Virus record (IMG/VR): IMGVR_UViG_3300042885_000751
Span: 1-64,000 of that record
Direction: 5' to 3' (one strand)
DNA length: 64,000 nt
DNA from: a virus
Lineage: Duplodnaviria > Caudoviricetes
The position numbers were made by a program, and so were the translations under genes. The notes beneath the pieces were generated by a model. It worked only from the letters and a program-made list of their open reading frames with translations. It did not search any database and was not told the origin of the DNA. Each line of letters begins with the position of its first letter. Positions within the stretch are counted from its first letter, which is position 1. Below, in pieces: positions 26,214 to 48,915 of the stretch.

Positions 26214-29201
26214 ATGAGTACTTACATAAGTGGTGTCACTGATTTTATTCCTCAATTTCAACCTTTTCAACCTGATTTAAACTTTTATGCAAATGCATTG
26301 CAAACAAAGCAGAATCAGTATGATACAAACTATAAAGCATTAAATAATGTTTATGGTCAATATTTCTATGCAGATTTAACTCATGGGGATAATCTTAAAA
26401 AGAAAGATGAATTACTTAAAGCAATTGACTTTAATTTAAAACGTGTCTCTGGTTTAGATTTATCATTAGAGCAAAATGTTGATCAAGCTACTCAAGTATT
26501 TAAACCATTTTATCAAGATAAATATCTTATGAGAGATATGGCTTGGACTAAAAATAAAAATAGTGAGAGAGAATATGGCCTTGGTTTAAAGAATAATAGA
26601 GATGAAAAACAAGGAAAGAAATATTGGGAAGAAGGTATAAGATTTTTAGATTATAAAACTGAAGAGTTTAAAAATGGATCACTTGAAGATACAATGAATA
26701 TGGGAAATGCAACATATACTCCTTATGTCAATGTAATTGAAAAAGCTCAAAAAATTGCTAAAGATCAAGGTTTTCATGTTGAAAGTGTAGATACTAGTCC
26801 AGATGGTAAATGGATGATTACTACTACAAACGGTAAACAAATATTACCTCAATTAAAATATTTACTTGAAGCACAACTTGGATCTGATCCTGGTGTTATT
26901 GATGTATATAGAACTCAAGCATATGTAAATAGAAAAGATTATGCATATTCTAATGCAGCTCAATTTAATGGGGATAAGAATGCTGCTGAAATGAAATATC
27001 TTTCAGATAATTATACTATACTTAAGGCAGAAAATGATGCAAGAAAAAAACAACTAGAAAAAAATAGCCAAGTATATGATAATAAAGCAAAACAAGTTAC
27101 TCAAGCTATAGAAAGTGGATCATCTACCCCAGATACAGAATCATATCTTGAAAGAATAAGTCATGCAACTGCTGTTAATTCAGCTGTACTTGCAACTACT
27201 GATGCTACTGTGTCAGCTTTATCAACTAGTACTGGAACATTAACTACATCTACAGGATTCACAAATCCATATGGAGATATTGAATCTTTAAGAAATAAAA
27301 TTGATAATGGAATGGCATCTAAATTGATGCAAAAAGATTTAAGTGAAGCAGCAGATATCTTTGTATCATTAAACGCTAAACAAAAAGTAGATGCAAATCC
27401 ATTTGCTATTCAAGAAATAGCTCATAACTATAGAATGCAAGAAACTGCATTAAGAAATCAAGGTACAATGCAAGCAGCATTGTTAAGAAATCAATCAGAT
27501 AGAGAAATTGCTAATGATAAAGTTCTTTATGATACTGGAGCTTATGTACCAGATCAAGAAAAATATGTAATGGGTCCTAATGGTGAACAAATGTTAAATC
27601 CAAATTTTAACAGACCTGTACTTATGGAAGGAGCAGATGAAATTTCTGTTGAAAAAGTTGGTTCTGGATCAACTGGAATAGTTAATGTTCAAGATGTTGT
27701 AAATAATCAATCAACTAAAGCTGCAAAAGATATAGTTGAACCATATATGAATAACATGTTTGCATCAATGTCAGAATTATGGGATAAAAATTTATTATCA
27801 GCTGAAGATAGAGATATGATTCTTGGTAAAGGAAGTAGTATTGTAGAATTTAATAAAAAATATCAAGAAAATCCTGCTGCATATATTAAAAGTATGGGAG
27901 CTCAAAAACTTAAATCAATTTCAGCTGCTTTTCAAAAATATTTAACAGATAATAATAATGTTGGTATTAATGATATTGATATAACAATAGATAAAATGTC
28001 AAAACTTAATACTAATGTAAATGATTATGTAAGATATAAAGAAGATGTTACAGATTGGAAATTAAAAAGTGTTCCTCTTGTTAAAGAGCATGTAGCTAAA
28101 AATAATCCTGCTCTTAAAGACTATTTAAAAGATATATTTGATAAAAATGGTAATTTAATTAGTGAAAATGCATTTAATAAAAAATATAATTTAGCATCTG
28201 CAAATAAAGAAGCTCTAAAAGGATATATACAATATCAAACAACAAATCCTAAATCAAGTGGAATCATAACACAAAGTACAATAGATAGAGTTCAAGGATT
28301 TGATATATATAATAAAATTAAAGAAGCTGTTCATGAAGCATATGGTTCTTCACAAGTAAATTCAAAAGTTCCATCAGGATTTAATCCATTAGGTGCTAAT
28401 ATTAAAGGAGCAGGATTAAGTGTTGAAAGAAATATAATGAATGTACATGGTGGTGCTTATTTAACTACAAATGCTCAATATTGGAATCAAACTAAAAAAG
28501 ATATAAGCAGTATGGATTTTGGTGATAGCAAATCAGTACAAACTTCATTTAGTGGACCAGTTTTAGGTGTTAATGGAACTAAAAATCAAACAGCTAAAGC
28601 ATTACTTGATGCTTATATTGCACATGTTAATAAAAAAGAAAATAAAGCAACAGGGTTTAAAGTTGGTTCACAAATGATTGCAGCTGGAGATTACACAAAA
28701 GGTGCAATGATATTTTATCCAGATAAAGCATTTTTAAAAGAATATACAGGTGCAAAAGTAAAAAATGAAAATGATGAATGGGTTATGTCAAATTTAATAA
28801 CTCCACAAGAAGAACAAGAAATTTTAAAAAATGGTATATCAGTTATATCTAATGTAAATAATTTTCAAAATGGACTTATGAAATCTTCTTATATGAGCCC
28901 TTTACAAGCGTCAATTGCATATAATAAAGAAAAAGGAGTTACTATAGTAGATGCAAAAGATAAAACAGGTTATAATACTTTGAATATTAGAGTTGATGAA
29001 TTTAATACTGGAGATTATATATATACTCAAACTTATTCAGTATATGATCCTAATACTAAAAGTTTAATAAAATCAAAACCATATACTGTTTCATCTGTTA
29101 ATACTGGAAACAATGTTGATGCCGTAAGAGATAATATGATGGTAAAATGGGATATGCAAAGAATTCAAAATAATGAATTATTTAATAATGTAAGTAGATA
29201 A
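26214..29201 (+). CDS. Ejected cargo protein
   Basis: 995 aa, Cys-free; PQFQPFQPD...LQTKQNQYD N-terminus resembles crAss-like cargo proteins upstream of the RNAP block. Confidence 0.6.
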   Translation: MSTYISGVTDFIPQFQPFQPDLNFYANALQTKQNQYDTNYKALNNVYGQYFYADLTHGDNLKKKDELLKAIDFNLKRVSGLDLSLEQNVDQATQVFKPFYQDKYLMRDMAWTKNKNSEREYGLGLKNNRDEKQGKKYWEEGIRFLDYKTEEFKNGSLEDTMNMGNATYTPYVNVIEKAQKIAKDQGFHVESVDTSPDGKWMITTTNGKQILPQLKYLLEAQLGSDPGVIDVYRTQAYVNRKDYAYSNAAQFNGDKNAAEMKYLSDNYTILKAENDARKKQLEKNSQVYDNKAKQVTQAIESGSSTPDTESYLERISHATAVNSAVLATTDATVSALSTSTGTLTTSTGFTNPYGDIESLRNKIDNGMASKLMQKDLSEAADIFVSLNAKQKVDANPFAIQEIAHNYRMQETALRNQGTMQAALLRNQSDREIANDKVLYDTGAYVPDQEKYVMGPNGEQMLNPNFNRPVLMEGADEISVEKVGSGSTGIVNVQDVVNNQSTKAAKDIVEPYMNNMFASMSELWDKNLLSAEDRDMILGKGSSIVEFNKKYQENPAAYIKSMGAQKLKSISAAFQKYLTDNNNVGINDIDITIDKMSKLNTNVNDYVRYKEDVTDWKLKSVPLVKEHVAKNNPALKDYLKDIFDKNGNLISENAFNKKYNLASANKEALKGYIQYQTTNPKSSGIITQSTIDRVQGFDIYNKIKEAVHEAYGSSQVNSKVPSGFNPLGANIKGAGLSVERNIMNVHGGAYLTTNAQYWNQTKKDISSMDFGDSKSVQTSFSGPVLGVNGTKNQTAKALLDAYIAHVNKKENKATGFKVGSQMIAAGDYTKGAMIFYPDKAFLKEYTGAKVKNENDEWVMSNLITPQEEQEILKNGISVISNVNNFQNGLMKSSYMSPLQASIAYNKEKGVTIVDAKDKTGYNTLNIRVDEFNTGDYIYTQTYSVYDPNTKSLIKSKPYTVSSVNTGNNVDAVRDNMMVKWDMQRIQNNELFNNVSR

Positions 29202-32200
29202 TGGAAAATACTTTTAGCCCTTTAGATCCACTTGGACCAGAATTTGGTAAAGTTCAAGGACCTGCAATTAATGCACAAAGTTTATCTCCATTTGAAGGTG
29301 ATGTATTAAAAGAAAATAAAATTGATTTTTTTCCTATTGCACATGATTTTAGTATTGCTGCACATCCTAAATATCCTGTACAAGATGTTGTAACTGGGCG
29401 TAGTCCAAATAGACCAGGTTATCAAAATCCAAATAAAAATCTTACAGCACAACAACGTGCAGATGCATGGGCAGCTGATAGTGAGATGATGATCAGATCA
29501 CATAATGATAAAAATACATATGCAAAAATGAATATGTATAATGCTGGTCCATCTGGTAATTCATTTTATAAAAGATATGCAGCTTTTGGTGAGAAAAAAT
29601 TTAATGAATTAGGTTTTTCTCCAATGAGAGATAATGAAGCAATATATAATGCTAATACAACTTGGGGAGAAAGAGCATCAAGAATGATGAAAAATTCATT
29701 TTTACCTTTACTAGGTAGAGGATTTGTATCTGGTCCAAAGAGTTTATTTAAAATGATGCAAGGTGATTTTAGTTCTGATCTTGAAGATGCAAGAGCATAT
29801 GAAGAAGCTGCAGCTATAGGTCAAGATACATCAGGAGGTTTTGGAGCATTCTTTACTAATACTTCAATGAGTTTTGCATATACTGCGGGTATTATTGGTG
29901 AAGCAATTGTTGAAGAAGTTGCAGGTGCTTTACTTGCTCCTGTTACTTTTGGTGGTTCTTTTTTTGCTGCTACTGCTAACAATTTAAGAAAAGTTGGTAA
30001 ACTTGGTGATGCTGTTGATTTAGCTGTTGATGGATATAGAGCTGTTAATACTACACTTAAAGAAGCAAATAGTATCAATGGTGCTAGAAAAATGTGGAAA
30101 GGAGCAGAAACTTTTGGCAATAATAAACTTGTTAAATTTTTAAATCCACTTGAAAATACATATAGTGCAGTTATGGGCATTGGTAAAAATGCAGATAACT
30201 TAACAGGTCTTGCAAGATTATCACGTGAAACTAGTAAAACAGCAGGTGGTTTATTCAGAGATGTAAGAAATATTAATATGGCATTATCAGAAGCCCGTCT
30301 AGAAGGTGGTATGAATGATAATAAAGTATATGATGAATTATATGATGAATACTACAGAAAGAATGAAAGAGCTCCAAGTGATGAAGAGCAATATGAAATG
30401 ACTAAAACTGCAAAAGCATCTGGTATAAATACATTGATGTGGAATACTGCATTAATATTTGCATCAAATAAAATTGTACTTCCTAACTTAATGAAATCCG
30501 GTGCAGGTAAAAATGCAATTGGTAATAAGTTAGATGATGTATTAACCATGAAAGATGGTAAAGTTGTACTTGAAAAAAAATTTGATGCAGGTAAAAAAAT
30601 TGCAAAAGGTGAATTTACATATGTTGCTAATTCATTTAAAAACTCACTTAAAGGATTTAAAGCTGCTCCAATTAGAACTACTGCTAAAGTAGCTGGAACA
30701 TATCTAAAAGGTAATTTACTTGAAGGTGTTCAAGAAAACTTACAAGATGTTATATCAGTAGCTAATGAAGAATACTATATTAATTCATATAAGAATAAAG
30801 AATTAGGTGCTCACTTATATAATAAATCACAAAGTTCATTAATGCTAGATGGATTAAAAAATCAATTCTCATCACAGGGATTTGAAACATTTGCTTCAGG
30901 TGCATTAATGGGTTTATTTTCTGGTGGATTAAACTTAATTAAAGGAGGTTTAGATGCAGGTTATAATAATATATTTAATAAAGAAGAATATAATACATAT
31001 AAAGCAGAAAGAAAAACACATGGTGAAAATGTAGCAAAACAATTAACTGCATTGTATAATGACCCTAATGAATTCTTTGACCCAAAGTTATTTAATTATG
31101 GTAATCAAAATAATGTTGTAGCAAATACAGAAGATGCAGATACTAAAGATAAAAAAGATGATTTGCGTGATGCATTCATGAGTCAAGTATGGACATCATT
31201 AAGTTCTAATACACTTAATTATTTTAAAGATCATATCTCTTCATTTAAAGATGTAACACCAGAAGAGTTTGAAGATGCATTTGGATTTGAAAAAGGTACT
31301 GGTATTGAAAGACAAGGTAAAATTGATACTATTATATCTAAGATAGATGATGTTAAAAAAACATATGATTATGCAAGTGATAGATTTCCTAATCCAATTG
31401 ACTTAAGTAAATATGATAAAGCTTTACCTGAATATAGAGAAGCAGCATTACTTAGTAGAGCTTGGAATGAAGGGGTAAGGCAATATGTTTTTTCAAACCA
31501 TAAATATATGGACAATGTTGATAGAATGGTAAGTATTTCTGGTACCATTCTAGATAATCCATCTATGAAAAAGATGTCTCAAACAGACATGCAAATGATA
31601 CTTCAACCTTCAAAAATAAATGATGAAGTACAATTACTTAAATCAGAAATAGAAGGGCTTAGTCAATTAACTGATTCTAAGTCTAAAGCAGAATTATTAA
31701 AAAAACAAAATAAAGTAACAGCTTTAGAAGAATATGCATCTGCACATAATATGCATGAAGCATACTATAACAGTTCTACAAGAGATCAGTTTATTAATGA
31801 TTTATTTGAAGAAGTAAAAAAACAACAAGGTGTTGCAGAATTAACAGAAGATGATAAAAAACAAATACTTGAGATTCAAGAAAATGCAGTTGATAATGAT
31901 TTAGAATTAGCATATAAAAACTTTTTAAAAGTTGCAAATGGCATTGATTCATCTTATATATTTGATACTGATGTTGATGAAAGTTTTAGTAAGCTTAAAG
32001 ATCATTATAAAATAGATGAAGAAACAAAAGATCTTGTTAAACAAATTAATTTAATGCATGACCCAAAGTTTTTTATGGGTCAAGTTAATAAATCTAAAGT
32101 TTGGATGACTAATATGTACAATAATAGAAAAGACTATTTTGTAGATATGGTTAATAAGCAAATTAATGGATTAGAAAATAATACATTCTTAAATGCATTA

Positions 32201-34891
32201 GCTGATAAAAATATATTCATGGATCTTGAAGAATTTCAAAATTATATGGATAATAATGTTCCACCTAAAGAATTTCTTAATGATACTACAAAACAAGTAA
32301 TAAAACCAGGTACTATTGAATATGCATTAATATTTGATATGCTACAAAAGAATAAAGAATTAAAAACTCAAGAGACATCAAAAGAAACATTTGAAGAAAA
32401 ATTACAAACAGTACTTGATGGTTTAGATATAGCAGAACAAAAAGAAATTGATAAGCTAGAAAAAACTGAAGTTAAAACTAAAGTTAAAACAGTTAAGAGA
32501 GAGGGTATAAAAATTAAAGATGTTGCTATTGAAATTGCACTTGGAGAATATGTAGATATAACAATTGAAAAAACAGATCAGGTATTAACATTATTTAGTT
32601 CTGCTGAAGGATTAAGAAATAATAATAAAGATGGTGACGTAATTAGCATTAAGGATATCAAGGATACATTCTCTGAATATACAATTTATAAACTTGAACT
32701 TAAACCAAATGCAGCAGAGGTTAAAGAAATAAATAAAAAATATACAGATCTTAAGAAAGAAGCAATAGATAAATTTAAAGCTGAAAAAAGTAAAAATGAA
32801 TTAAAACAATATTCAATATATACTGAGTTAAAAGATTTCCCTAAAGACTTATACAAAGAGTTGCAGGCTGAATTTAATAAATCTGAAGAACTAGCAGCTG
32901 CATCTGATGAAGACTTATCTGATGAAGAGATATTAGATATGTTTAAAGCATTTATTGAAAAAGATGCTAATGCTAAAACTATTATAGATAATTATAATGG
33001 TAAAAATGCAGAAGAAGTAAAAAAAGAAGAATCTGGTGAAATAGAGGAATTTGATTTTCAATATAATAATAAAACTGAAAACACTTCTAAATTTGATAAT
33101 GAGCAAATAAAAACTTTAAGTAGTCAATTTAAGAATTTTAGAGATAGTGAAACTGATCCTGTAAAAAAAGAATATTATGCAAAGGTGGTTAATGATTTTA
33201 AAAAATTAATTGCTACACGTTTACTAAAAAGCTATAAACCTGATATACAAGAGACAATAAGAATTATAAAAGAAAAGTTAACTGATCAACAAGGAAGAGC
33301 ACAAAAAATAGGTCAACTGGGTTATTTAGTAAATAATAAAATTCTTGAAAGAGTAACTAATTTTATACAAGGTTTAAAAAGTAATAAATATAAATACACA
33401 GGAAAACAAATAATAACTAATGCTTTTGATATTACTATTAATAAAACTGGATTGAATAAAGAAAGCATTGATGCTTTCATGACTGAGATTGATGAAAAAT
33501 TAATGCCAACTCCAACAAAAGATACAGGATATACAAAAGATACTCTTGATGGTGTTGCATCCACTTCAAATAATTTAAGAAATTACTTAAATGATATACT
33601 TGAAAATAAAGAAACAAATGGTCTTAAGAGTAAAAAAGATCAGTTAGATGCAATACAAAAATATATATCTGATAATGCATATGAGTATACAAGAAAAGCT
33701 GGTGATTATTTAGATGAGCAATTAAAAAGTTTCTTTACTAAAGGAGAAAAACCAGAATTTAAAGAATCAGAAATTATTAGAGAAGCATTTGATGATATAT
33801 TTGGACCTAAAGGTTTTTTAAAACCCATTAAACAAAAAATAGATTCAGGTGAGTTATATGTATTAGCAAAAAATCTTGTAGTATTTGATGAAGAAAGTGG
33901 TATTGCTGGTGAAATGGATTTACTGCTTATTGATAAACAAGGTAAATTACACATAGTAGATTTTAAAACTGGTGAACAAAAAAAATGGAATGGCTTTGTT
34001 GAAGGAACAGATTCAGGTTTAAATAAAACTGAAGACTATACTCTACAACAATATACTTATGCTAGATTATTAAAAAAGATGACAGGACTTGATGCTGAAA
34101 TAAACATCATGCCTATTGAAATAAATATTAATAAATATAGATATCAAATTGGAACTGTAAATGAACCTACTAATAAAAAGTTATTAGGTTTAGATAATTG
34201 GTATTTTCCATTAGATCCTAATTTTGCTGATGCTAAAACTAAAATAGATAAAGAAATTAGTATTACAGAACCTGTTATTACTGAGCCTGTTATTACAGAA
34301 CCTGGTATTAAAGTAGCTACAGAAGTAAAATTAAGTGATGAAGATAAAACTAAACTAGGTAGACTTGGTTATAAATCTGAATTTTATAGACAGCTTTCTA
34401 AAGAAGACTTAACAAAAATACTTCAAGATAGTATTCCAATTGAAGTGTTTACTAAAGAGCAAACAATAACTGAAGAAAAACAAGTTACAAAAGTATCTGA
34501 ACTTACTTTTAAAAATGGTGATACTGTTATAGTTGAGAAAACAATACCTGGTAGAAAAAATGATCCTGATTTTGCTTCAGTAGGTGCAGTAATAACTGTT
34601 ATAGAAACTACAGAAAAAGGTGTCAGATTTACATACATGGGACGCCAAAAAACATTATCTTTGTCTGAGTTAGATAAATATGTTACAACAAAAACTATTG
34701 AGAAAACTAAAGAAGCTGAAAAGGGTGATGAAGTTTTAGATGCAATAGATCAAGACTTAATTGCTGAGTCATTAAAAGTATTAAAAGATTTTATTTCTAG
34801 TGATACAAATATAAATAAAGCAAAAACAAATGCTAATGATAAAACATTAGTAGAGATTTATGATGAATTATTAAAATACTTAGATTGTTAA
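29201..34891 (+). CDS. Giant cargo protein with hydrophobic segments and a PD-(D/E)xK nuclease domain
   Basis: 1896 aa; Gly/Ala hydrophobic stretches in the N-terminal third; IAGEMDLLLID...IVDFKTG...QQYTY RecB-like motifs at about 33900-34070. Confidence 0.7.
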   Translation: MENTFSPLDPLGPEFGKVQGPAINAQSLSPFEGDVLKENKIDFFPIAHDFSIAAHPKYPVQDVVTGRSPNRPGYQNPNKNLTAQQRADAWAADSEMMIRSHNDKNTYAKMNMYNAGPSGNSFYKRYAAFGEKKFNELGFSPMRDNEAIYNANTTWGERASRMMKNSFLPLLGRGFVSGPKSLFKMMQGDFSSDLEDARAYEEAAAIGQDTSGGFGAFFTNTSMSFAYTAGIIGEAIVEEVAGALLAPVTFGGSFFAATANNLRKVGKLGDAVDLAVDGYRAVNTTLKEANSINGARKMWKGAETFGNNKLVKFLNPLENTYSAVMGIGKNADNLTGLARLSRETSKTAGGLFRDVRNINMALSEARLEGGMNDNKVYDELYDEYYRKNERAPSDEEQYEMTKTAKASGINTLMWNTALIFASNKIVLPNLMKSGAGKNAIGNKLDDVLTMKDGKVVLEKKFDAGKKIAKGEFTYVANSFKNSLKGFKAAPIRTTAKVAGTYLKGNLLEGVQENLQDVISVANEEYYINSYKNKELGAHLYNKSQSSLMLDGLKNQFSSQGFETFASGALMGLFSGGLNLIKGGLDAGYNNIFNKEEYNTYKAERKTHGENVAKQLTALYNDPNEFFDPKLFNYGNQNNVVANTEDADTKDKKDDLRDAFMSQVWTSLSSNTLNYFKDHISSFKDVTPEEFEDAFGFEKGTGIERQGKIDTIISKIDDVKKTYDYASDRFPNPIDLSKYDKALPEYREAALLSRAWNEGVRQYVFSNHKYMDNVDRMVSISGTILDNPSMKKMSQTDMQMILQPSKINDEVQLLKSEIEGLSQLTDSKSKAELLKKQNKVTALEEYASAHNMHEAYYNSSTRDQFINDLFEEVKKQQGVAELTEDDKKQILEIQENAVDNDLELAYKNFLKVANGIDSSYIFDTDVDESFSKLKDHYKIDEETKDLVKQINLMHDPKFFMGQVNKSKVWMTNMYNNRKDYFVDMVNKQINGLENNTFLNALADKNIFMDLEEFQNYMDNNVPPKEFLNDTTKQVIKPGTIEYALIFDMLQKNKELKTQETSKETFEEKLQTVLDGLDIAEQKEIDKLEKTEVKTKVKTVKREGIKIKDVAIEIALGEYVDITIEKTDQVLTLFSSAEGLRNNNKDGDVISIKDIKDTFSEYTIYKLELKPNAAEVKEINKKYTDLKKEAIDKFKAEKSKNELKQYSIYTELKDFPKDLYKELQAEFNKSEELAAASDEDLSDEEILDMFKAFIEKDANAKTIIDNYNGKNAEEVKKEESGEIEEFDFQYNNKTENTSKFDNEQIKTLSSQFKNFRDSETDPVKKEYYAKVVNDFKKLIATRLLKSYKPDIQETIRIIKEKLTDQQGRAQKIGQLGYLVNNKILERVTNFIQGLKSNKYKYTGKQIITNAFDITINKTGLNKESIDAFMTEIDEKLMPTPTKDTGYTKDTLDGVASTSNNLRNYLNDILENKETNGLKSKKDQLDAIQKYISDNAYEYTRKAGDYLDEQLKSFFTKGEKPEFKESEIIREAFDDIFGPKGFLKPIKQKIDSGELYVLAKNLVVFDEESGIAGEMDLLLIDKQGKLHIVDFKTGEQKKWNGFVEGTDSGLNKTEDYTLQQYTYARLLKKMTGLDAEINIMPIEININKYRYQIGTVNEPTNKKLLGLDNWYFPLDPNFADAKTKIDKEISITEPVITEPVITEPGIKVATEVKLSDEDKTKLGRLGYKSEFYRQLSKEDLTKILQDSIPIEVFTKEQTITEEKQVTKVSELTFKNGDTVIVEKTIPGRKNDPDFASVGAVITVIETTEKGVRFTYMGRQKTLSLSELDKYVTTKTIEKTKEAEKGDEVLDAIDQDLIAESLKVLKDFISSDTNINKAKTNANDKTLVEIYDELLKYLDC
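34262..34309 (+). repeat. Coding 15-bp tandem repeat (ITEPV x3)
   Basis: attacagaacctgtt attactgagcctgtt attacagaacctggt att. Confidence 0.75.
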
Positions 34892-40800: not shown

Positions 40801-43800
40801 AAGTAGGTAGTGTAACATCTCAATTAAATAAAGATGGTAAAGCAGTAGCAGATCAGATATATGATGATAATGGTGCTCAAAAAACATTAAAATCAGATAT
40901 TGCTTTTACTCCAAATACAATATACTTAGCATATCTTAAAAATGTTACAGCTGTTCCAATTAAATTAAAAGGTAAAACAGTATTCTCTACTCAGTTAAGA
41001 AAACTTATTATTGAAGGTTTATATGAGAATGGTAAATTAGTTAATCAAGAATATGCACCATTTGTTAAAGCTTATGAAGATGCTGTAAATGGTTATACTG
41101 AAATACTAAAAACTGAATTATTAAATGAAATTGGTTATGAATATAAAGATGGTAAATATGTTAGTGGTAATATAACTAAATTCATGGATGTAGTTCAAAG
41201 AGAACTTACTAGAAAAGATTTACCAGAACATTTAATTGACTATATTCAAGTTGGTTCTAATAATGTTTTAACAAAAGATTTATCATTACATATGCTTTCA
41301 GGAGACATTGAAAAAATGATAACATCACTTGTTGAAAAAAGAATCATAAAACAAAAAGTAAAAGGTGAAGCATTAGTACAGGTTGCTAGTTCTTTAACTA
41401 ATGGATTATGGGATTCAGGTTTTAAATTTGAAAAAGCTCAAACTGCAGAAATAGAAAAATACTTAGGTACTAATAACTTACCTTTCTATAATCCAGGTGA
41501 AAATGGTAATACATCTGCAATGAAAGTTGCTATTGCATTACAAGGTGATTTTAAAAATCTTTTAAAACTGAAAGATCTTGATGGTGTAGAAATAGGTACA
41601 AGAGAAAGATTAAATGTATTAATTAAAAATGATGAGTGGTTAAATAAAGGCAATAACCGGAAATCTGTTACTTTATCAGCTGTAAGGATCCCTGTACAAG
41701 GAATGAACTCTATGGAGTTTATGGAAGTATATGAATTTTTAGATCCAGCTGCAGGTTCTATTATTATTCCTCCATCAGAAATTGTTGCTAAATCAGGAGC
41801 AGATTATGATGTTGATAAGCTTACTACATTCATGCCTAATATAGATGAAAATGGTAATTATGTAACATCTAATATATCTGAGGAAACATTAAAAAAATTA
41901 ATTGCAAATGCAGAATCTAAAGGTGATAAAGCTGAAGTAGTTAAATTAATTGCATTACAGAAAAAAGCAATTGAAAATAGATTAATTGATTCTATCAGAG
42001 GTATATTACAACTACCTGATAATTATGCTACATTAGTAAGACCAAATGAAACTTACTTAATGAAAGATATTGCAGATGAGTTAGTAGACTCTTCACCTGA
42101 ATATGGAAGATATAAAACTATTAGTCCAACAAATACATTAGAGGTAGGTTATAATCTAGCTAAACATGATTATAATATGACAGGGAAAGATGTATTAGGT
42201 ATTATTGCTCTTGAAAATGCATTACATCCATTGTATACAGCATTAGGTGCTGCTTTACCAAAAACATATTATGGTTCAGTTAAAAATAAAAGGACTAAAA
42301 AATATGAAGATGATAAAAGTATAATCTATGATATGAGATTATTACTTGATCATAATAAAACTGAAGATGGAAGAATTTCTTTATCAGGTATTAATAGTGT
42401 AGATGGCCAAGATAAAATAGCAGATTTATTTTCACATTTAATGAATGGTTCTGTGGATGTTGAGAAAGATGCATGGATTTTCTTTATTCAAGCTAATAAA
42501 GAACTTATACCAATGTTGTTGAATTTACTTAAAGCTGGTGTCCCAAAAAGACAAGCAGTTTATTTTATATCTCAACCATTAGTAAAAGAATATGCAAATC
42601 AACAAAGACTATATGCTAGTACATATGCAAATCTTACTGGTAAAGAAACATTACCTGATGAAAATGCAAAATATAATGCTCTTCAAGCTACATTAAAACA
42701 AACTGATATTAGTCAAGCTATTTTTAAAGCAAATGAAAATAGATTAAATAATACATTAGATAATCTTAATCCTAATACTATTATAAAAGTAAAACCAAAA
42801 AATAATAAAGATTCATTTGAAATTACTGTTAAAGAATTTAAAAAATTTATTACTGAAGGTGAGATTAAATTAGACTATACTGATGCATTACTTGATATTA
42901 AAGGTAATGTAATATTTAAAAGTATAATTGCAGATCCTAATAATGCGTTTTATCACCCAATGTCTACTCCAAACTATAAAGATGTTGTACTTGCAGCAAC
43001 TGAAGGTATGGATAAGTTTACTACAGCTGATTTAAAAGAGACAATGGAAAGTAATGATACTACAAGTCCAAAAGCTATTGCAATGTTCTTACATTACCTA
43101 GAATATGAAAGGCAAATAAAAGATATGGCTGATCTTAAAAGACAGTCAAATCCTGATACTGCTACTTCTAAAACTATACAGGAGATCATGCAAAGAAAAA
43201 TTGGTTTAGATATTTTATCTAGGTCATCTAAAATAGATCAAGATTTAGTAAGAAAATTAAGAGAAGAGTCTATATTAGGATCTTTCTTTGATAATGTTAT
43301 TACTCAAGATTTAGTAGAACCTTTATTTCCATTAACAGATGATAAAAGAGTATCTGATTATTTACTTAATTATATTAATAATAATAACATTCCACTTAAA
43401 TTTGGTGAAGGAGCAGATGGCATAACTAATTTTATCACATCATTTAAACAAGCAATGGTAAATTATATTTATCAAAACAGATTAAATGAGATAATAACTA
43501 CTAAAGAGTCATTCCCAGGTGTACCAGAATTATTTAATTCTTTAAATCACCAAGCATATGTGACTAGATTTATGAGTATGATAAGTGAAAATACTCACTT
43601 AAAAGAATTGTATTCAGTACTAGAACAGATTACTGATGTACCGGTAAATATATTTGATTCTAAAACTAAGCAAATTAAAGGTCAGATATCTGTATTAACA
43701 TTAAACAATAAACCTGTAGTAAAAGGAGCACTATCTGATAGTTATCATCAAAACTTAATTGATCTTGCTGATGAAAATGTTATTAAAGTAAAAGATCCAG

Positions 43801-44813
43801 TTAAGAATAAAAAAATATCAGACATGTTTAAGATATTACCTCTTATATCTGTTTTACAGAATGGAGTAGGTAACACTAAATATGGTCTTAGTTATGTTCT
43901 TCCTGATACTACATACTTTGAAATAGTAGAACCAGCATCTAGAGAATTTATTTCTAATAAGATGAATACATCTACTTTTGATAAAATTGCAGCTATGATG
44001 ATTGCTAATGACCCTAATGTAAATAATTACATTGATGGTTCAATTATATTTAAACCTACTACTCAACCATCTACTCAACAACAAGCTCCAGTAGGTAAAG
44101 TTTTTGATTATAATTATAAAATACCTTATGAAAAACTTAAAGCAGTCATACCGGCTAGTAAATTTAATTCATTATTTATTAAAATTGAGGATTTACTAAA
44201 TAATTATAGAATTAGTAAAGATGTACTTGATACTGTTCTTACTAAAAGCTCAGATAAAATGAAAGGTTTAATATTACTTATAGAAAAGCGATTTAGAAAT
44301 GAAAATCTTATATATGGTACACCTGAATTTGATTTAAATATATGGGAAGAAAATAGAAATTACCTTTCAACTCTACTACATGCTGAACTTAAAAAGATTT
44401 ATCCAAATTTACCTGCACTTGAAAAAATACAAACAGTTGCAAAAAGACAAGCTTCAGTAACTGAAGAAGAACCAGATGGACAAACTGGAGAAGGCACAAC
44501 TGAAAATCCAGTACCAGAAGAAAGAAATATAATAGTAAATCAATATACTTTCACAATTAAACCAGATGGTAAAATATATTATGGTAACGGTAAAGAATTA
44601 ACTGAACAAACTATTAAAAATAAAGTGTATATTAGAAAAGAATTACAAGATGGTACATTAAGAGTGTCTACCTTTGATAAAAAAAATTATTATGTGCTTT
44701 CAGATAATAGAATAATTGATTCTGGAAAAACTGTAGGTGATGAATCTGTATTAAATTCTTTAACTAAAGAAAGAATATTAGAAGCAGCTTCACTTTATAA
44801 AAAATCTTGTTAA
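34896..44813 (+). CDS. Giant virion DNA-dependent RNA polymerase (crAss type) with zincin-like HExxH domain
   Basis: GADYDVDKL catalytic DxDxD (41802-41816) preceded by VRIP; DGQGY and HKF motifs; YHEAWH...EEIIAEDF at about 37416. Confidence 0.85.
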   Translation: MVNCSLSPTQVENLYKLIYKQMLNSLEDNSFNQEAFMTDLFEKIEQKADINTASTFLQVVPVLMKEALEQDELGNVNFDLNINRELINNFKNTENGLFKTLKYFKPEATLADLEISMEIEKGIINTPESDQGDELTDILNDPFRWQADDALTSTMQELSTRKPDEKDTGAKEKKDPNKERIYRAIRKIKEKGVRKEGGPELIYQGKVLKLKTVKLLSLNAKNLLDKTTVAFVIKSNSIVDQGTSLEDVTPAKDIIALVVTDENGVELFFDENGNISTKEEGGQIVYQFLRDVRTEKDSNKLRVTDIYGLEDRILSPAELIEKDAHNSKMSMESYKKWLIDQGTTYEELLVAVDNKQQESFKELQNLRDDARADKPKLLNITDISAGITDVFFSETSTTLDDFLTSSKKTFEDLDLQINPDKFTAQVYVNDTYYTIDRPNLPEEYINQIAAVLVNPKLTNEQKNNFYLQFTNNNINRDKRKLLVFYDSVTKELTAKYRTKSSESAQLFDLSASGAEKIIIDSLLYESTYVKTNGETEIYATTMGYNKDLLISKGVSKFYTYDRTTDKLIAKSYKDFLNGLDLKVLKPDTEKNDKDKAVNNPYFQFRIDKDFIAETEEVKEATTSTPVDKIKETKDNLVAKLKVNKDLSGTIYSGKALTDATFEMMIDGVRVEGRYEDGKPIAGIKIGDPVTFIVNDVSPTITDVISIYKGDKKIGQVSQTDFTLKPKTPKATVTPQQKAAEKDKPLTNPDKVGQADDTTGISDAFDLNRSAKLPNNVTQEEITAAQEWWDNSPLSKLIKLEHMANIVNSDVYARFIIAGKRLEDTKIQLDTATGSSAVDLYHEAWHAFSQLYLTKDQKTKLYAETRKRLNNYDLSPIEVEEIIAEDFRDYAKNPQTIKDGPTRNSLFRKIWNFIKALFGKQNTKDELFEKLFFASKNPKLLNKYTPLVDNHMFNTLNRARGIVNTETKELVLNYQDSLKVSNQIDSALSQIIDEVYNDRLNKNINKVKDLAGNIVTVNKTGTIQILTIDKNKKEAYARIELRFNKRLDKFKTELETTPQEDFNKRSLLNNKIRIIEEALANWDNVLEFHKEHSTFDLIKQKYIEINEEETEIDEDKTGTEVVEESEAVSKSEVGEKSLLQLAEKETLYILKSLFKIVDGKQVEGPLGFPELVDFSKIWNTVTKVIGGEKNPVKMYLKLQEAIPFYPELAQLVNNKFPDPRNIKTLQEFNIKAAFWQDFKKPLIRYVQLTVDTDKETGNYKSEVTDASIEFKNIINSFKSAFNSSAETKYISKNENNKSALKLDTLIKAFPTTASIALPAQQIEFVNALGIGLQDLKSIKDELGSKDYSIFYIYQIAKAVDTLNKDSKLSNNEQKEFIKKFIDNPIDALYGKIPAGIYKTTTSEKAVIQNLAKLQSKYGNNYASFSVLNAEKKLVNEFTEDSSVTMIVDAINNVKNGRDLWMNKGYNYMSYLNPLINGFTEQSQLLKSIFEVEENTWARRGDAKLDLVMVSGTQIVNLDGANTTSLDVHSKYIQELNMMLKSGFQEFMRHASKSSSFGMKSNKLNLYVDIEKFKPGGDANQYAVDNIFLGYIQAELLRIQKIRGNKEEYKKYVGYNREIKSADGKTVLGMAGEFFTAFDNILTKDTKEEIIEKVKDGKLLDYLESDPKLKEDITEQVSAYFERQSADNKKDFQKSKWIDPALTNKLKVYELSTDDEETTLIKAHTMNAWIHNFETASLIYGDIVQYNHAKQELHKRNPGSTSGGRGFMDDLYTQNFLNSDLIKGTSYGAKLATMDEFGSDYAPFSYSNTYNTAIMQEVKRSSVYVKNIEKGLREDYKNRGLSQAEIDKRLLKELKPYKDMEEGDGQGYITIDAYRLLRLAEKNWSSEQEDLFQKVISGKEVSTEDITQIFPVYKLQHFGHLANTPLPVNAMHKFALMPLIPSLIVGSDLESLHHQMMKGNIQYATFQTGSKVGSVTSQLNKDGKAVADQIYDDNGAQKTLKSDIAFTPNTIYLAYLKNVTAVPIKLKGKTVFSTQLRKLIIEGLYENGKLVNQEYAPFVKAYEDAVNGYTEILKTELLNEIGYEYKDGKYVSGNITKFMDVVQRELTRKDLPEHLIDYIQVGSNNVLTKDLSLHMLSGDIEKMITSLVEKRIIKQKVKGEALVQVASSLTNGLWDSGFKFEKAQTAEIEKYLGTNNLPFYNPGENGNTSAMKVAIALQGDFKNLLKLKDLDGVEIGTRERLNVLIKNDEWLNKGNNRKSVTLSAVRIPVQGMNSMEFMEVYEFLDPAAGSIIIPPSEIVAKSGADYDVDKLTTFMPNIDENGNYVTSNISEETLKKLIANAESKGDKAEVVKLIALQKKAIENRLIDSIRGILQLPDNYATLVRPNETYLMKDIADELVDSSPEYGRYKTISPTNTLEVGYNLAKHDYNMTGKDVLGIIALENALHPLYTALGAALPKTYYGSVKNKRTKKYEDDKSIIYDMRLLLDHNKTEDGRISLSGINSVDGQDKIADLFSHLMNGSVDVEKDAWIFFIQANKELIPMLLNLLKAGVPKRQAVYFISQPLVKEYANQQRLYASTYANLTGKETLPDENAKYNALQATLKQTDISQAIFKANENRLNNTLDNLNPNTIIKVKPKNNKDSFEITVKEFKKFITEGEIKLDYTDALLDIKGNVIFKSIIADPNNAFYHPMSTPNYKDVVLAATEGMDKFTTADLKETMESNDTTSPKAIAMFLHYLEYERQIKDMADLKRQSNPDTATSKTIQEIMQRKIGLDILSRSSKIDQDLVRKLREESILGSFFDNVITQDLVEPLFPLTDDKRVSDYLLNYINNNNIPLKFGEGADGITNFITSFKQAMVNYIYQNRLNEIITTKESFPGVPELFNSLNHQAYVTRFMSMISENTHLKELYSVLEQITDVPVNIFDSKTKQIKGQISVLTLNNKPVVKGALSDSYHQNLIDLADENVIKVKDPVKNKKISDMFKILPLISVLQNGVGNTKYGLSYVLPDTTYFEIVEPASREFISNKMNTSTFDKIAAMMIANDPNVNNYIDGSIIFKPTTQPSTQQQAPVGKVFDYNYKIPYEKLKAVIPASKFNSLFIKIEDLLNNYRISKDVLDTVLTKSSDKMKGLILLIEKRFRNENLIYGTPEFDLNIWEENRNYLSTLLHAELKKIYPNLPALEKIQTVAKRQASVTEEEPDGQTGEGTTENPVPEERNIIVNQYTFTIKPDGKIYYGNGKELTEQTIKNKVYIRKELQDGTLRVSTFDKKNYYVLSDNRIIDSGKTVGDESVLNSLTKERILEAASLYKKSC

Positions 44814-44823: not shown

Positions 44824-45582
44824 ATGGCTTGTAAACTACAAATTAAAGAAGATTTAAATAAAGAAATTGATAAAAAACTAGGTGGGTATAGAGATACTAC
44901 ACATAGTGACTTTAATGCTGAAAGAATCTTAAAAGATATTAATAATGAATATCCTAAACTAGCTAGTAAAAGTGTTTTTGATAAAGATATAGTTGTAATA
45001 AACATTTCTGAAAAAGTTCTTGATAGTATTGTTGATGAAAAATATAATGCTCAATTACAAATAGAAGAAGAGTTAGCAATGATGTCTGGTGAAGTAGATT
45101 TTGATGAAAGAGATATTAGTTTTTATAATGGTGATGAAGCTTTATTTGATCAGGAAAATAGAGAAGAAGCAGAAATAGAAGTAGATGAAGAATACATAGA
45201 AGAATACCCTATTCAAACTGAATATAAAAAAGAATTTGAGAAGACTGGTAAAAAACCAAAATCAGTTATAATTGGTGGTTCAAAAGCTATTTTAAATAAT
45301 AATGATACATATGATATAACAGATTTATCAGGTAAAATAGTATTATTAAAAAATATTGACCTAGATACTATGGAATTAGTAGAAGAACCAGTATCTTTAA
45401 AACCATATAATCAAAAAGCATTTAATTCTTTTGTAAATGATACTATGTTAAATCTATTTACAGAAGAACAACTTGCTTATAAAGGTATTGACATTAATGA
45501 TATATTTGATGAATTAGAAGTAATTACTACTGAATCTGAGTTAGTCAAAATAATGGTTAAAGTACTTAAAAATTTGTGTTAA
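44824..45582 (+). CDS. Acidic hypothetical protein (probable cargo/linker)
   Basis: 252 aa, E/D-rich, Cys only at residue 3 and the last residue. Confidence 0.6.
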   Translation: MACKLQIKEDLNKEIDKKLGGYRDTTHSDFNAERILKDINNEYPKLASKSVFDKDIVVINISEKVLDSIVDEKYNAQLQIEEELAMMSGEVDFDERDISFYNGDEALFDQENREEAEIEVDEEYIEEYPIQTEYKKEFEKTGKKPKSVIIGGSKAILNNNDTYDITDLSGKIVLLKNIDLDTMELVEEPVSLKPYNQKAFNSFVNDTMLNLFTEEQLAYKGIDINDIFDELEVITTESELVKIMVKVLKNLC

Positions 45583-45600
45583 TTAAAAATTCTAAACAAT

Positions 45601-48600
45601 ATGTATTGCCCAATTAAAACCAGCAAAGAATATGTAAAAATACTTAACTCAGTAAATGGAAATGATACTAGAGCTGAAGAAGAATGGATTAAACAAGGTT
45701 TTGCTAATAATAAAGATTTAAATTATATACCTGATGAATTAACTGATAATGCTGAAGTAAAAAAAGATGATATATCTACTATGGTGGATAGTATTTGGGG
45801 ATATTTAGAAAAACAATTAAAAATACTTCAAGGTCAAAAATTAATTAATCAAGAAGAAAAAGAAGAAAGACAAAAAAAATTAATTGAAGAATTTAGACAT
45901 CTTGAAGGTATTAATTCTATTAACATGTTTGTTAAAGACAGTTATGAAAAAGCTTTAGAAATTGAAAAATTAATGAAAGCTATCATTAATAAAAAAGATG
46001 ATGGCACAGATGATTTTAAAAAAAATCAAATTGCTGAACTTACTAAGTTAAATAATTTTGCTAGTGGTTATAGTATTCTTGATGAAATTTCTAAAGCTGA
46101 TATATATAGTTTTTTTACTGCAAAAGAAGGAGAAGAACAAGTCTCTGAAGAAACTGGTAAAACTATAAGAGAAATGTTAACAGATGCAATCTCAATAAAA
46201 AAAGCAGTTAAAGAACAATATATAAGACAGGGTATACCATTAATGGCCTCATTTTTACTTAATTATAAAAATTTAAATTTAGATGAAGCAATTGATAATG
46301 AAGTAAATGCATTAATAAAAAAATTAGAAGCTGAAAAAACATCTGCAAATGCTAATGATAAAAAAATTAAACAGATAACAGATAGAATTACTAAATATAG
46401 ATCTTTTACACAGACTCAAGAGTCAATGGAAGATTTATTAAAATTTGCTGCTAAAGATGAAGGTTCAATGGAATTTTGGTTTGGACCATTAATAACTAAT
46501 GCAGATGCTTCATTAGGTTTATTTGCAAGAGCAGTTAAAACAGAATTTGAAAGTGCAAGACAATTGGATATAGATATAGCAAAACTTGCAGGTAAAGCAT
46601 TTACAAAATATAAAGATAGTCAAGCAGAAAGCAGAGACAATCCAGCTAAGTTTAATGAAGGTTTATATGAAGTATTATCATCTTATAGTACAGATAAGAA
46701 TGGTGAACCTGTTATTACTAAAAAAATGGCTTTTGTACAAAAATACCGTATGAGTGATTATAATAAAGAGTTAAATAAAATATATACTAATCCAATTAAA
46801 GGTACTGATCTTTCACCTGCTCAATTAAGAGCAAAATCTGATTATGAAGCTAATAAAACTACTATAATAAGAGACTGGTATGCTGAGAATGCACAAAAGA
46901 AAAGTGATGCAGAAATTGATAAAATTCTTGCTGAAAAAAATAAATTACTAAATTCTGGTGCTTGGAATCAAAAAGATTATGATAAATGGCATAAATCTGT
47001 TTTAAAAATCTTAGATAATGGTACTAAGATTTATATGAAAGAATTTAGTGAGCCAGCTGATAAATATCTTAATAAAAAATGGGAAGCTTTGTATGATAAA
47101 AATGATAAACCTAAAAATGCTAAAGGGGAATACCATTCATTTTTATTAAATCTATATCTTGATGCTCAAGAAAAAGTACCAGATACTCAAAAAATGGGTT
47201 ATGTTTTACCATCAATACATAAACGTACTATAGAAAGAAGTAGTATTAAAAGTGTTATAAAAGATAAATTTGAAGATGCAACAACTATAAGAGGAGATGA
47301 ACCTGAATTTGGTGTTTCAGATTTATCTAATGAAAGTGCAAAGTTTATACCCGTATACTATACTCAAGATATGGATGCTGATGAAGTAAGTTTAGATTTA
47401 ATAAGATCTGTAGAACTTTATTCTCAAATGGCAAATAAATATGAATCAGTAAATAATATCTCAGCAGAAACATCAATGTTTAAAGCCATTATAGGAGATA
47501 GAGAAGTTGCTGTAACTACTTCTAAAGATGTTAAAGTATTAGATGCACTTGCAAATAAACTTGGTATTAAATCTACTATTAAAAAACAAGGTGAAGCAAA
47601 TTCTAAAAAACATGTAGATGCATTTATAAATATGCAATTATATAATGAAATGCAAAAAGCTGAAGTAATTGGAAGTTATTCTATGGGTAAATTAACAAAT
47701 CTTGCTTTAAGTTATTCTGCTATAACAAGTATTGCTGCAGATTTACTTAAAGGTGTTGCAAATAATTTACAAGGTAATATCCAATTAATTATTGAAGCTA
47801 ACTCATCTGAATTTTTCAGTAGAAAAGATTTAAGAAAAGGTAAATTGTATTATGCAAAAAATGTAACCTCATTTCTTTCTGATTTTGGTAAACCAACACC
47901 TGATTCATTAGTAGGTAATCTTGTAAATCATTATGACCCAATGCAAGGTAACTATAAAGATCAGTATGGTAAAAATGTTTCAGGTAGTGTATTTGCTAAG
48001 TTAATGAGAACAGATACACTATTCTTTAATCAGCATTTTGGTGAGCATGAGATACAAGTATCTGCAATGTTTGCATTAATGGAAGCAACTAAAGTAACTG
48101 ATACTAATACTGGAGAAACAATTTCTCTTTTAGATGCATATACTAAATACGGCATTAAAGAACTTGATAAAAATACAGATTTCAATAATACAAAGAAACT
48201 TGACTTACAAAATAGAATACATGCAATAAGTAAAAAATTACATGGTGTCTATAATGATTTTGATAAAGGTACTGCACAAAGATATTCAGTAGGTAGATTA
48301 GCTATCATGTATAGAAAACATCTTATACCTGGTTATAAAAGAAGATATGGTAAACTTCAAGTAGATCAAGAACTTGGTGCTGTAACTGAAGGTTACTATA
48401 TAACTTTTTATAATACAATGTTAAAAGATTTGGCTAAGCTGAAACTTAATATGATGCAGAACTGGTCAACATATACACCTTTTGAAAAAGCACAAATCAA
48501 AAGAGTAATGGCTGAAACAGTAATCATATTTGGAACAACTGCTTTTATAATGTTATTAATGCATGCTTTTGGTGATGATGATGATGAGAAAAAAGGATAT

Positions 48601-48915
48601 GTATACAATTTTATGTTGTATGAATTATCTAGAATGCAATCTGAAACTGCATCATATATATCTCCTCAAGATGCTTATCGTACTGTTAAATCTCCATCAG
48701 CTATGGTTAGTACAATAGAAAGAATGACAAAATTTGTTGATCAATTTTTATTTACATGGAGTCCTGAAAAATTAAGTTATCAAAGAAAAGAAGGTGTATG
48801 GAATAAAGGTGATAATAAATCTTGGGCATACTTTCTTAAACTAATGGGTTTCTCTGGATATAATTTTAATCCAGAAGCAGCAGTTAAATCATTTAAAGCT
48901 ACACTATTAAAATAA
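45601..48915 (+). CDS. Large helical cargo protein
   Basis: 1104 aa; KKLHGVYN...GRLAIMYRKHL..GYKRRY C-terminal region and one hydrophobic helix (VIIFGTTAFIMLLMHAF). Confidence 0.65.
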   Translation: MYCPIKTSKEYVKILNSVNGNDTRAEEEWIKQGFANNKDLNYIPDELTDNAEVKKDDISTMVDSIWGYLEKQLKILQGQKLINQEEKEERQKKLIEEFRHLEGINSINMFVKDSYEKALEIEKLMKAIINKKDDGTDDFKKNQIAELTKLNNFASGYSILDEISKADIYSFFTAKEGEEQVSEETGKTIREMLTDAISIKKAVKEQYIRQGIPLMASFLLNYKNLNLDEAIDNEVNALIKKLEAEKTSANANDKKIKQITDRITKYRSFTQTQESMEDLLKFAAKDEGSMEFWFGPLITNADASLGLFARAVKTEFESARQLDIDIAKLAGKAFTKYKDSQAESRDNPAKFNEGLYEVLSSYSTDKNGEPVITKKMAFVQKYRMSDYNKELNKIYTNPIKGTDLSPAQLRAKSDYEANKTTIIRDWYAENAQKKSDAEIDKILAEKNKLLNSGAWNQKDYDKWHKSVLKILDNGTKIYMKEFSEPADKYLNKKWEALYDKNDKPKNAKGEYHSFLLNLYLDAQEKVPDTQKMGYVLPSIHKRTIERSSIKSVIKDKFEDATTIRGDEPEFGVSDLSNESAKFIPVYYTQDMDADEVSLDLIRSVELYSQMANKYESVNNISAETSMFKAIIGDREVAVTTSKDVKVLDALANKLGIKSTIKKQGEANSKKHVDAFINMQLYNEMQKAEVIGSYSMGKLTNLALSYSAITSIAADLLKGVANNLQGNIQLIIEANSSEFFSRKDLRKGKLYYAKNVTSFLSDFGKPTPDSLVGNLVNHYDPMQGNYKDQYGKNVSGSVFAKLMRTDTLFFNQHFGEHEIQVSAMFALMEATKVTDTNTGETISLLDAYTKYGIKELDKNTDFNNTKKLDLQNRIHAISKKLHGVYNDFDKGTAQRYSVGRLAIMYRKHLIPGYKRRYGKLQVDQELGAVTEGYYITFYNTMLKDLAKLKLNMMQNWSTYTPFEKAQIKRVMAETVIIFGTTAFIMLLMHAFGDDDDEKKGYVYNFMLYELSRMQSETASYISPQDAYRTVKSPSAMVSTIERMTKFVDQFLFTWSPEKLSYQRKEGVWNKGDNKSWAYFLKLMGFSGYNFNPEAAVKSFKATLLK

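Follow-up and report, generated by a model that had tools for sequence, protein, structure and literature searches.

Facing terminal cysteines in the virion RNA polymerase module of a crAss-like phage and their possible role in linking putative cargo proteins

The putative cargo genes and their cysteines

The stretch of DNA analysed here, which we call the window, comprises 64,000 nucleotides (positions 1 to 64,000 of IMG/VR virus record IMGVR_UViG_3300042885_000751), and its open reading frame (ORF) listing includes nine consecutive plus-strand genes spanning 12590-48915. The last eight of these encode 10,283 amino acids with only six cysteines (Cys) among them (0.058%, by script count); the window's remaining 31 ORFs contain 193 in 10,203 amino acids (1.89%). 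The binomial probability of finding six or fewer is 4.5e-75, or 6.5e-43 if the minus-strand genes alone (1.15% cysteine) set the expectation. All six cysteines lie at the facing termini of the last four proteins, which read, in order, ...KYLDC-stop, MVNC...KKSC-stop, MAC...KNLC-stop and MYCP.... Were six cysteines placed at random in the 6557 residues of these four proteins, the probability that every one of them would lie no more than five residues from one of the eight termini is 3.5e-14; six of the eight termini are occupied, and the probability that the two empty ones are both outer ends is 1/28. The three C-terminal cysteine codons are TGT followed by TAA, and the N-terminal codons are TGT, TGT and TGC. 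An earlier note on this DNA had described these ORFs, their lengths, the six terminal cysteines, the absence of cysteine from the four proteins just upstream and the pairing of each C-terminal cysteine with a single partner at the beginning of the protein encoded next, and our computational count agrees with it on each of these points (Table 1).

Table 1. Genes of the cargo block and the structural genes before it
Feature	Position	Strand	Cysteines	Family match
Tail ring protein	11561..12577	+	11	Pfam PF24228 CrAss_Ring_1, 47.5 bits (cut-off 27)
Muzzle protein, 1762 amino acids	12590..17878	+	17	Pfam PF25731 crAss_MUZ, 109.4 bits (cut-off 27)
Four proteins of 901, 840, 990 and 995 amino acids	17878..29201	+	0 in each	
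1896-amino-acid protein	29201..34891	+	Cys1896 alone, the last residue (codon 34886-34888)	
3305-amino-acid protein	34896..44813	+	Cys4 (34905-34907) and Cys3305 (44808-44810), no others	
252-amino-acid protein	44824..45582	+	Cys3 (44830-44832) and Cys252 (45577-45579), no others	
1104-amino-acid protein	45601..48915	+	Cys3 alone (45607-45609); C-terminus without cysteine	

The first of the four cysteine-bearing proteins, of 1896 residues, gave a weak blastp match to crAss001 gp47 (E = 3e-9) and to protein 82 of cyanophage Lbo-JY46. The earlier note had labeled it nuclease-containing; its residues 1550-1627 match PD-(D/E)XK at 20.9 bits, which falls below the Pfam cut-off of 22, and this is the sole Pfam match among the four proteins, none of which has anything over threshold. 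The second protein, of 3305 residues, matches phi14:2 g066, the crystallised virion RNA polymerase (blastp E = 8e-28), as well as crAss001 gp50 (E = 9e-13), and on the strength of these similarities is a homologue of the virion RNA polymerase. The catalytic motif of the crassvirus polymerase has been named as DFDxD (10.1101/2020.03.07.982082). The 3305-residue protein has DYDVD at residue 2303 and no exact DFDxD, the aligned stretch of g066 holds DFDID at 1361, and a close orthologue (P0021) carries DFDVD. A phmmer comparison of the 3305-residue protein with all PDB sequences found no match at E <= 1; it is a weak test of a relation to N4 gp50, since phi14:2 gp66, a match by blastp, escaped it too. 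The last protein, of 1104 residues, matches crAss001 gp49 (E = 2e-53) and phi14:2 g065 (E = 2e-42), and a search of PDB sequences with a profile of this gp49-like family found nothing. At residue 812 it has HFGEH, an instance of the pattern HxxEH, in which G814, E815 and E817 are invariant among 44 homologues; phi14:2 g065 has HEIMH at residue 245, in the part before residue 739 that does not align with the 1104-residue protein.

The third protein, of 252 residues, will be referred to as the adaptor. AlphaFold2 models it (mean predicted local distance difference test score, or pLDDT, 71.5) as two domains, residues 1-88 and 129-252, joined by an acidic linker (residues 89-127, pLDDT < 50) that is predicted to be disordered; Cys3 would stand where the first helix begins and Cys252 just after the last one. 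It has no counterpart in GenBank phages by tblastn against 50,697 phage records, and its model has no Foldseek match in the PDB at E <= 0.001. The best Foldseek match, to winged-helix regulators, has an E value of only 0.29 and is not to be trusted. The seven proteins of the block other than the 3305-residue one were scanned against PHROGs, and none belongs to a PHROG family.

Conservation of the terminal cysteines and their relation to gene breaks

The cysteine pattern is conserved in each family for which homologues were gathered. Every one of 32 homologues of the 1896-residue protein has exactly one cysteine, which is the last residue in 24 and the next-to-last in eight, making 32 cysteines in 62,909 amino acids. 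The family of the 1104-residue protein, taken as 64 proteins with identity down to 31% over the first 350 residues, has a cysteine at residue 3-6 within a CP[IN] motif in all 64, and 72 cysteines in 70,710 amino acids; a C-terminal cysteine occurs in none of its full-length members. Among 16 homologues of the adaptor (identity down to 47%, 30 cysteines in 3,856 amino acids), Cys3 is present in 15 and the C-terminal cysteine in 15, both exceptions being truncated sequences. By these alignments the terminal-cysteine rule is conserved down to approximately 30% identity, and since the cysteine codon may be either TGT or TGC among relatives, selection acts on the protein.

We then took a census of junctions in viral contigs at loci around homologues of the 1104-residue protein, covering the best 80 of 111 confirmed matches. 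Upstream plus-strand ORFs were taken, and each start was set mechanically as the first ATG in a search beginning 25 bases ahead of the preceding stop. All 100 junctions at the 80 loci have cysteine on both sides, within the last five residues of the upstream protein and the first eight of the downstream one, as do all 72 when one locus is taken per cluster. In 55 clusters at >=90% identity there is one junction in 35, two in 17, three in one and none in two; the last (3 of the 80 loci) have none because the contig ends. The last protein of the series, the homologue of the 1104-residue protein, has a C-terminal cysteine at none of the 80 loci, and the non-redundant loci hold 145 terminal and 30 internal cysteines in 205,487 amino acids. 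As a control, the same pipeline was applied to the opposite strand of the same loci plus the window; among 583 adjacent ORF pairs, which include spurious antisense ORFs, none has both cysteines, 7 have the C-terminal one and 51 have the N-terminal one.

At 37 of the 100 junctions the next ATG overlaps the C-terminal cysteine codon and the stop, leaving a gap of -7 bases. Where the DNA was read (loci L005-L007) the overlap is ATGTTAA and the downstream protein begins ML-x-C. It is an unusual coupling arrangement, and one that fixes TGT as the cysteine codon.

A profile of the adaptor family, run against 1.84 billion representatives, matched 72 proteins of 37 to 4865 residues. The C-terminal domain of the adaptor always lies at the extreme C-terminus of these matches, and 68 of the 72 have a cysteine in the last two residues. 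By blastp, some are orthologues of the 3305-residue polymerase with the adaptor's C-terminal domain fused at the end. Two of them, P0021 (3543 residues) and P0065 (4411 residues), have cysteines only at residue 5 and residue 4, respectively, and at the last residue, so that no cysteine is found where the window phage has ...KKSC-stop followed by MAC.... P0037 (4865 residues) has cysteines at residue 12 and at the last residue, with a methionine (Met) at position 8, and P0049 (3537 residues) has four, of which two are internal and the others are residue 5 and the last residue. By sequence comparison, then, the cysteine pairs appear at gene breaks and disappear at the matching site of fused orthologues. 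Both the conservation in relatives (32/32, 64/64 and 100/100) and this behavior in fused and split genes support the pairing that the earlier note had described. Between the polymerase core and the adaptor cap, the giant proteins among the profile matches P0021-P0085 carry varied inserts that recur in different combinations, an arrangement that resembles polyvalent-protein architecture.

Annotated phages extend the rule. Cysteine is found on both sides at 15 of 17 junctions across 10 GenBank phages, a count in which the gp47-to-gp50 "junction" of 4 of the 10 is assigned by topology, not adjacency. The break points vary, and each break carries a cysteine pair except for two of the 17. The module is split into gp47, gp50 and gp49 in phi14:2, crAss001 and DAC15. 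In phi14:2 it has four cysteines in 5,398 amino acids, all terminal: g067 (1797 residues) has one as its last residue, g066 (2180 residues) has Cys3 and Cys2179, and g065 (1421 residues) has Cys3. In crAss001 there are Cys2339 of 2341 in gp47, Cys5, Cys1334 and Cys2404 of 2412 in gp50, and Cys5 in gp49; in DAC15 there are Cys2220 of 2222 in gp078, Cys5, Cys2265 of 2265 and three internal cysteines in gp076, and Cys4 with one internal cysteine in gp077. In crAss002 and Lbo-JY46, gp47 is followed by a fusion of gp50 and gp49. The crAss002 gp32 has Cys2019 of 2020, and the fusion protein gp33 has Met33-Ser-Cys35; in Lbo-JY46 the sole cysteine of the gp47-like protein 82 (1552 residues) is its last residue, and that of protein 81 (2748 residues, with a gp49-like C-terminal part) is Cys4. 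In the Suoliviridae a giant protein precedes a gp49-like one: cr55_1, cr4_1 and cr118_1 have giants of 4551, 4491 and at least 3654 residues in view, each with a cysteine three from the end, and then a gp49-like protein with a cysteine at residue 3-5. To judge from these sequences, the rule spans the Steigviridae, Intestiviridae and Suoliviridae and also cyanophage Lbo-JY46, which has crAss-like cargo genes. Lbo-JY46 (a Leptolyngbya phage, PP438436, positions 1139-21629) is outside the Crassvirales by classification, yet its gp47-like and gp49-like proteins follow the cysteine rule; a 674-residue protein of the same phage has its sole cysteine at residue 5, with no partner found.

The pattern is also independent of gene order. 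The strand that encodes gp47 in crAss001, DAC15, IAS and cr116_1 is not the one that encodes gp50 and gp49, and the topology (C-terminal cysteine only, both, N-terminal only) is kept; with gp47 on the opposite strand, the rule cannot come from shared junction DNA. This bears on the idea that the cysteines are a by-product, either tolerated at unconstrained protein ends or encoded by codons that form part of a DNA or translation-coupling signal (TGTTAA, ATGTTAA). Such a signal would suit the three C-terminal cysteines of the window, all TGT followed by TAA, and the 37 overlapping junctions of relatives. Tolerance, however, would not yield conservation in 32 of 32, 64 of 64 and 100 of 100 cases, and the control pairs have a C-terminal cysteine in just 7/583 and an N-terminal one in 51/583; 63 of the 100 junctions lack the overlap, TGC is used as well, one to three residues may follow the C-terminal cysteine, the N-terminal cysteine lies downstream of the start codon, and gp47 keeps its C-terminal cysteine on the other strand, far from the start of gp50. 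We regard a by-product as scarcely credible, and codon variation, the junction census and the control pairs lead us to reject DNA-signal and chance explanations.

The same topology argues against a second idea, that each terminal cysteine acts independently, as a packaging or processing tag, as an anchor to the portal, the capsid interior or a DNA end, or in a link between copies of its own protein. A terminal position would suit a tag, and in a cyanopodophage discussed below a linked pair of ejection proteins does stand in a five-fold ring on the portal (PMC12002296). A tag, though, ought to sit at one and the same end in all the cargo proteins. What is seen in the window, phi14:2, crAss001, DAC15 and all 100 contig junctions is a first protein with a cysteine at its C-terminus alone, a last one with a cysteine at its N-terminus alone and middle ones with both, while the four proteins upstream have none and fused orthologues drop both cysteines at the join. 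We consider independent cysteines improbable.

Known ejection proteins and the proposed linkage

The earlier note knew of no description of such a linkage, but one link of this kind has been solved. In the pre-ejectosome of cyanopodophage A4, examined by cryo-electron microscopy, Cys1715 of gp27 forms a disulfide with Cys5 of gp26 (PNAS 2025, PMC12002296). The C-terminal helix of gp27 is inserted into a cleft of gp26 and stabilised there by the disulfide, and the linked gp27/gp26 pair is arranged in a five-fold ring on the portal (PMC12002296). We find that the sequence of A4 (Anabaena phage A-4L, KF356198) carries the signature seen at all three junctions of the window: consecutive large ejection proteins with a single cysteine each, the sole cysteine of gp27 being residue 1715 of 1717 and that of gp26 residue 5 of 1114. 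Unlike the window, A4 has one link and not three, its pair does not include an RNA polymerase, and the phage is a T7-like podophage of 41.7 kb in the Saffermanviridae, not a member of the Crassvirales. The bond is presented there as a structural detail and is not generalised, and the main text of that paper contains neither "crAss" nor "RNA polymerase" (PMC12002296). A one-link ejection-protein disulfide is already known (PMC12002296). A chain of several links that takes in the RNA polymerase, follows gene fission and is kept throughout the crass-like lineages sampled has no description in the literature searched, the main texts of mostly non-subscription papers; no description of terminal cysteines in crassvirus cargo was found in it, and the word "cysteine" is absent from the main texts of PMC10172136, 10.1101/2020.03.07.982082, PMC7886860, PMC10136315 and PMC13434306.

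The Crassvirales module (gp67-gp66-gp65 in phi14:2 and gp47-gp50-gp49 in crAss001) is like that of the window in being homologous, in following the muzzle gene and in its terminal-cysteine topology. The module proteins of both phages were found in virions by mass spectrometry, and they are fused or split from phage to phage (10.1101/2020.03.07.982082, PMC10172136); in some phages the three are one polyprotein, according to the preprint (10.1101/2020.03.07.982082). For crAss001, mass spectrometry placed gp45, gp46, gp47, gp49 and gp50 in the virion, where they are called cargo and are thought to pass through the tail partly unfolded (PMC10172136). Disulfide bonds are known from the crAss001 virion, where they occur in proteins of the tail and the portal vertex (PMC10172136). 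The module of the window, from an uncultured phage, differs from those of phi14:2 and crAss001 in having four genes, an additional adaptor of 252 residues and a wholly cysteine-free interior. In the Schitoviridae (N4-like phages), the giant virion RNA polymerase and its companion ejection proteins are nearly without cysteine, as the earlier note had stated for the N4 polymerase, and this suppression has been ascribed to passage through the envelope (PMC11445570). The N4-type polymerase shares the depletion of cysteine with the polymerase of the window; it is, however, a single chain without a terminal-cysteine rule, and it belongs to a different polymerase fold family (PMC13434306).

We suggest, with a probability of roughly 60%, that each facing pair of cysteines forms an inter-chain disulfide that locks a docking contact, so that the module is packed, and probably delivered, as a unit. 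The polymerase module is cut in this phage into four genes, for a gp47-like protein, the gp50-like RNA polymerase, the adaptor and a gp49-like protein. On this reading, selection has purged cysteine from these proteins, as from other phage proteins ejected through the tail, sparing one cysteine at each terminus that faces the next member of the module. Within the assembled particle each facing pair would be joined by an inter-chain disulfide, clamping the C-terminal tail or domain of one protein to the N-terminal region of its successor. In this way the separate proteins would be packed, and probably delivered, as a 1:1:1:1 unit of approximately 6,550 residues, in the order in which relatives encode them as one polypeptide; since the cysteines lie 0-3 residues from the C-terminal end or 3-6 from the N-terminal end, the joined product would be nearly linear. 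We infer the disulfide chemistry from the analogy with A4, along with formation of the bonds in the particle, their release by reduction in the host and any role in threading. The earlier note's observation was correct and the pairing is, comparatively, well supported; its interpretation as a whole is partly supported by the sequence comparisons.

Modeling of one terminal pair, which the earlier note had put forward, was carried out at the adaptor/1104-residue junction. The complex predicted for the adaptor with residues 1-400 of the 1104-residue protein scored 0.49, the best of three controls scored 0.00, at least 47% of contacts are shared between runs, and the pLDDT of the partner is at least 60. 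This lends weak support to a contact. Among solved complexes 58 of 80 reach the mark that we applied, and among mismatched pairs 2 of 110 do so, a calibration that holds only roughly because we used our own alignments; at scores of 0.60 or less, just 7 of the 80 solved complexes reach it, along with both of the passing mismatches.

The weakly predicted contact would also fit a non-covalent docking in which the two thiols shared a metal ion (Zn, Fe or Cu) or acted as a redox-sensitive latch in place of a stable disulfide. The comparative evidence (the pairing, the tracking of gene breaks, the independence from strand) is the same for this possibility, and thiolates, unlike disulfides, are stable in a reducing cytoplasm. 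Two thiolates alone, on the other hand, make a poor metal site, no conserved histidine or additional cysteine lies beside either terminus in the window or its relatives, and in A4, the single solved structure to show this signature, the bond is described as a disulfide (PMC12002296). We think a metal site or latch unlikely.

Other thiol chemistry would be still less likely, and we give it very little credence. One polypeptide could, for example, be rebuilt by ligation without an intein, if the C-terminal cysteine underwent an acyl shift and a trimmed N-terminal cysteine then attacked. The cysteines are placed where such chemistry needs them, the residues before the N-terminal and after the C-terminal cysteine vary and could be leaving groups, and the three proteins are a polyprotein in some phages (10.1101/2020.03.07.982082). 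Set against this, the four proteins have no intein/Hint domain or other Pfam family over threshold, the N-terminal cysteine is at residue 3-6 and not at residue 1, mass spectrometry of crAss001 virions lists gp47, gp49 and gp50 separately with their own masses (PMC10172136), and the A4 bond is a plain disulfide (PMC12002296). A split intein or trans-splicing was rejected: there is no Hint match, and with the cysteines at the last residue and at residue 3-4 there is no room for intein halves.

The disulfide reading itself faces a number of difficulties, which we collect here. The particles are assembled in the reducing cytoplasm, and the habitat of gut phages is moreover anoxic. A search of the 73,934-base record, estimated to be 63% complete, detected no Erv1/ALR oxidase (PF04777), but it matched no control genome either, so the negative carries no weight. 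Support from the complex prediction is weak, and one run of the three scored 0.02. The A4 proteins have no blastp match at E <= 0.01 among the window and crAss proteins, and the gp49-like alignment compared with A4 gp26, the protein that this profile comparison covered, has an hhalign probability of 0.4%; we therefore rejected A4 gp26 as a gp49-like homologue, and in view of this lack of detectable homology A4 is an analogy and not an orthologue. The crAss001 cargo proteins were detected by mass spectrometry and are structurally not resolved, and "cysteine" does not occur in the main text of the report (PMC10172136). Among GenBank phages the N-terminal cysteine is absent at two of the 17 junctions, from IAS gp056 and cr116_1 gp049; the former site is in a stretch of ambiguous bases, and the latter gene follows an endonuclease-like gene. 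The crAss002 module (MN917146, 8163-8270) fits only if gp33 starts at Met33 and not at its annotated start; Met33-Ser-Cys35 agrees with the motif at the N-terminus of orthologues, so translation probably begins 32 codons after the annotated start. Internal cysteines occur in gut crassviruses (one in crAss001 gp50, three in DAC15 gp076, eight in cr116_1 gp051 and nine in IAS gp056), so a cysteine-free interior is not universal. Finally, the C-terminal cysteine of crAss001 gp50 is eight residues from the end, and Lbo-JY46 protein 85 has an orphan Cys5.

Some of these sites have peculiarities of their own. The 170-base gap before crAss002 gp33 looks structured. In cr116_1 (NC_055882, 9560-10410), gp051 ends in TGT TAA and is followed by structured-looking DNA, the 215-residue gp050 (annotated with the note "gene 17 product of Salmonella phage PVPSE1") and then gp049, and the stretch from gp051 to gp049 may represent a single gene interrupted by an intron that carries a homing endonuclease. 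IAS gp055/gp056 present a similar oddity, within the ambiguous-base stretch.

A more general form of the disulfide reading can be put forward, though only tentatively, as we hold it to be less probable than not. It supposes a "terminal cysteine code" in the Crassvirales and some other podophages, in which a cysteine pair replaces the lost peptide bond wherever an ejected polyprotein is cut. The pieces would be rejoined in the fixed order gp47, gp50, adaptor, gp49 as a nearly linear thread of 5,000-6,500 residues with fixed stoichiometry, pulled through the tail piecewise and reduced in the host cytoplasm to an active multi-subunit RNA polymerase. If so, sequence alone would predict cargo partners, including those on opposite strands, and true start codons. 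As an aid to annotation the rule orders cargo proteins, pairs partners across strands and flags wrong starts, as in crAss002 gp33. It extends a single structural observation in A4 to a rule in three families of Crassvirales and Lbo-JY46. It also offers a concrete hypothesis for how a crassvirus packs and delivers a multi-protein RNA polymerase, the crAss001 proteins being not resolved (PMC10172136). The disulfide reading predicts that the three module proteins of phi14:2 or crAss001 will run as one species of approximately 600-700 kDa without reductant; if true, it would account for the repeated fission and fusion of genes that the module tolerates, for its cysteine-free interior and for the upkeep of a 1:1 stoichiometry.

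Genomic setting of the block

The source record is a virus contig, and the guanine-plus-cytosine content of the window is 26-33% throughout. The order of the block matches that of crAss001, with the module downstream of the ring and muzzle genes, and the minus strand downstream of the block encodes a DNA polymerase and further replication proteins. The ring and muzzle matches, together with these replication genes, identify the window as the late end of a crAss-like phage genome. By these matches the order of the genes is ring, muzzle, four cysteine-free proteins and the virion RNA polymerase module. The muzzle protein, which also matches a PHROG family of virion structural proteins (E = 3.5e-47), is the last cysteine-bearing structural gene before the cargo block.

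The four cysteine-free proteins belong to no PHROG family (all four were scanned) and to no Pfam family (three were scanned). That of 901 residues is 37% identical to Lbo-JY46 protein 86 over 110 residues, and by synteny the four occupy the position of crAss001 gp45 and gp46. Their position makes them candidate cargo proteins that lie outside the cysteine chain.

Upstream, at 4077-6347 in the structural module, are two cysteine-rich proteins that stand in stark contrast to the cysteine-free cargo block. One has 181 residues, nine cysteines and the C-terminus ECKNC; the other has 520 residues, 45 cysteines (8.65%) and the C-terminus GCGCNS. Neither belongs to a Pfam or PHROG family. Within the cargo block itself the only sizeable intergenic gaps are at 20584-20643 and 26149-26213. 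Both contain AGTAAAC followed by an AT-rich stretch with TTACA at its end, and they may be promoters or terminators that divide the block into transcription units.

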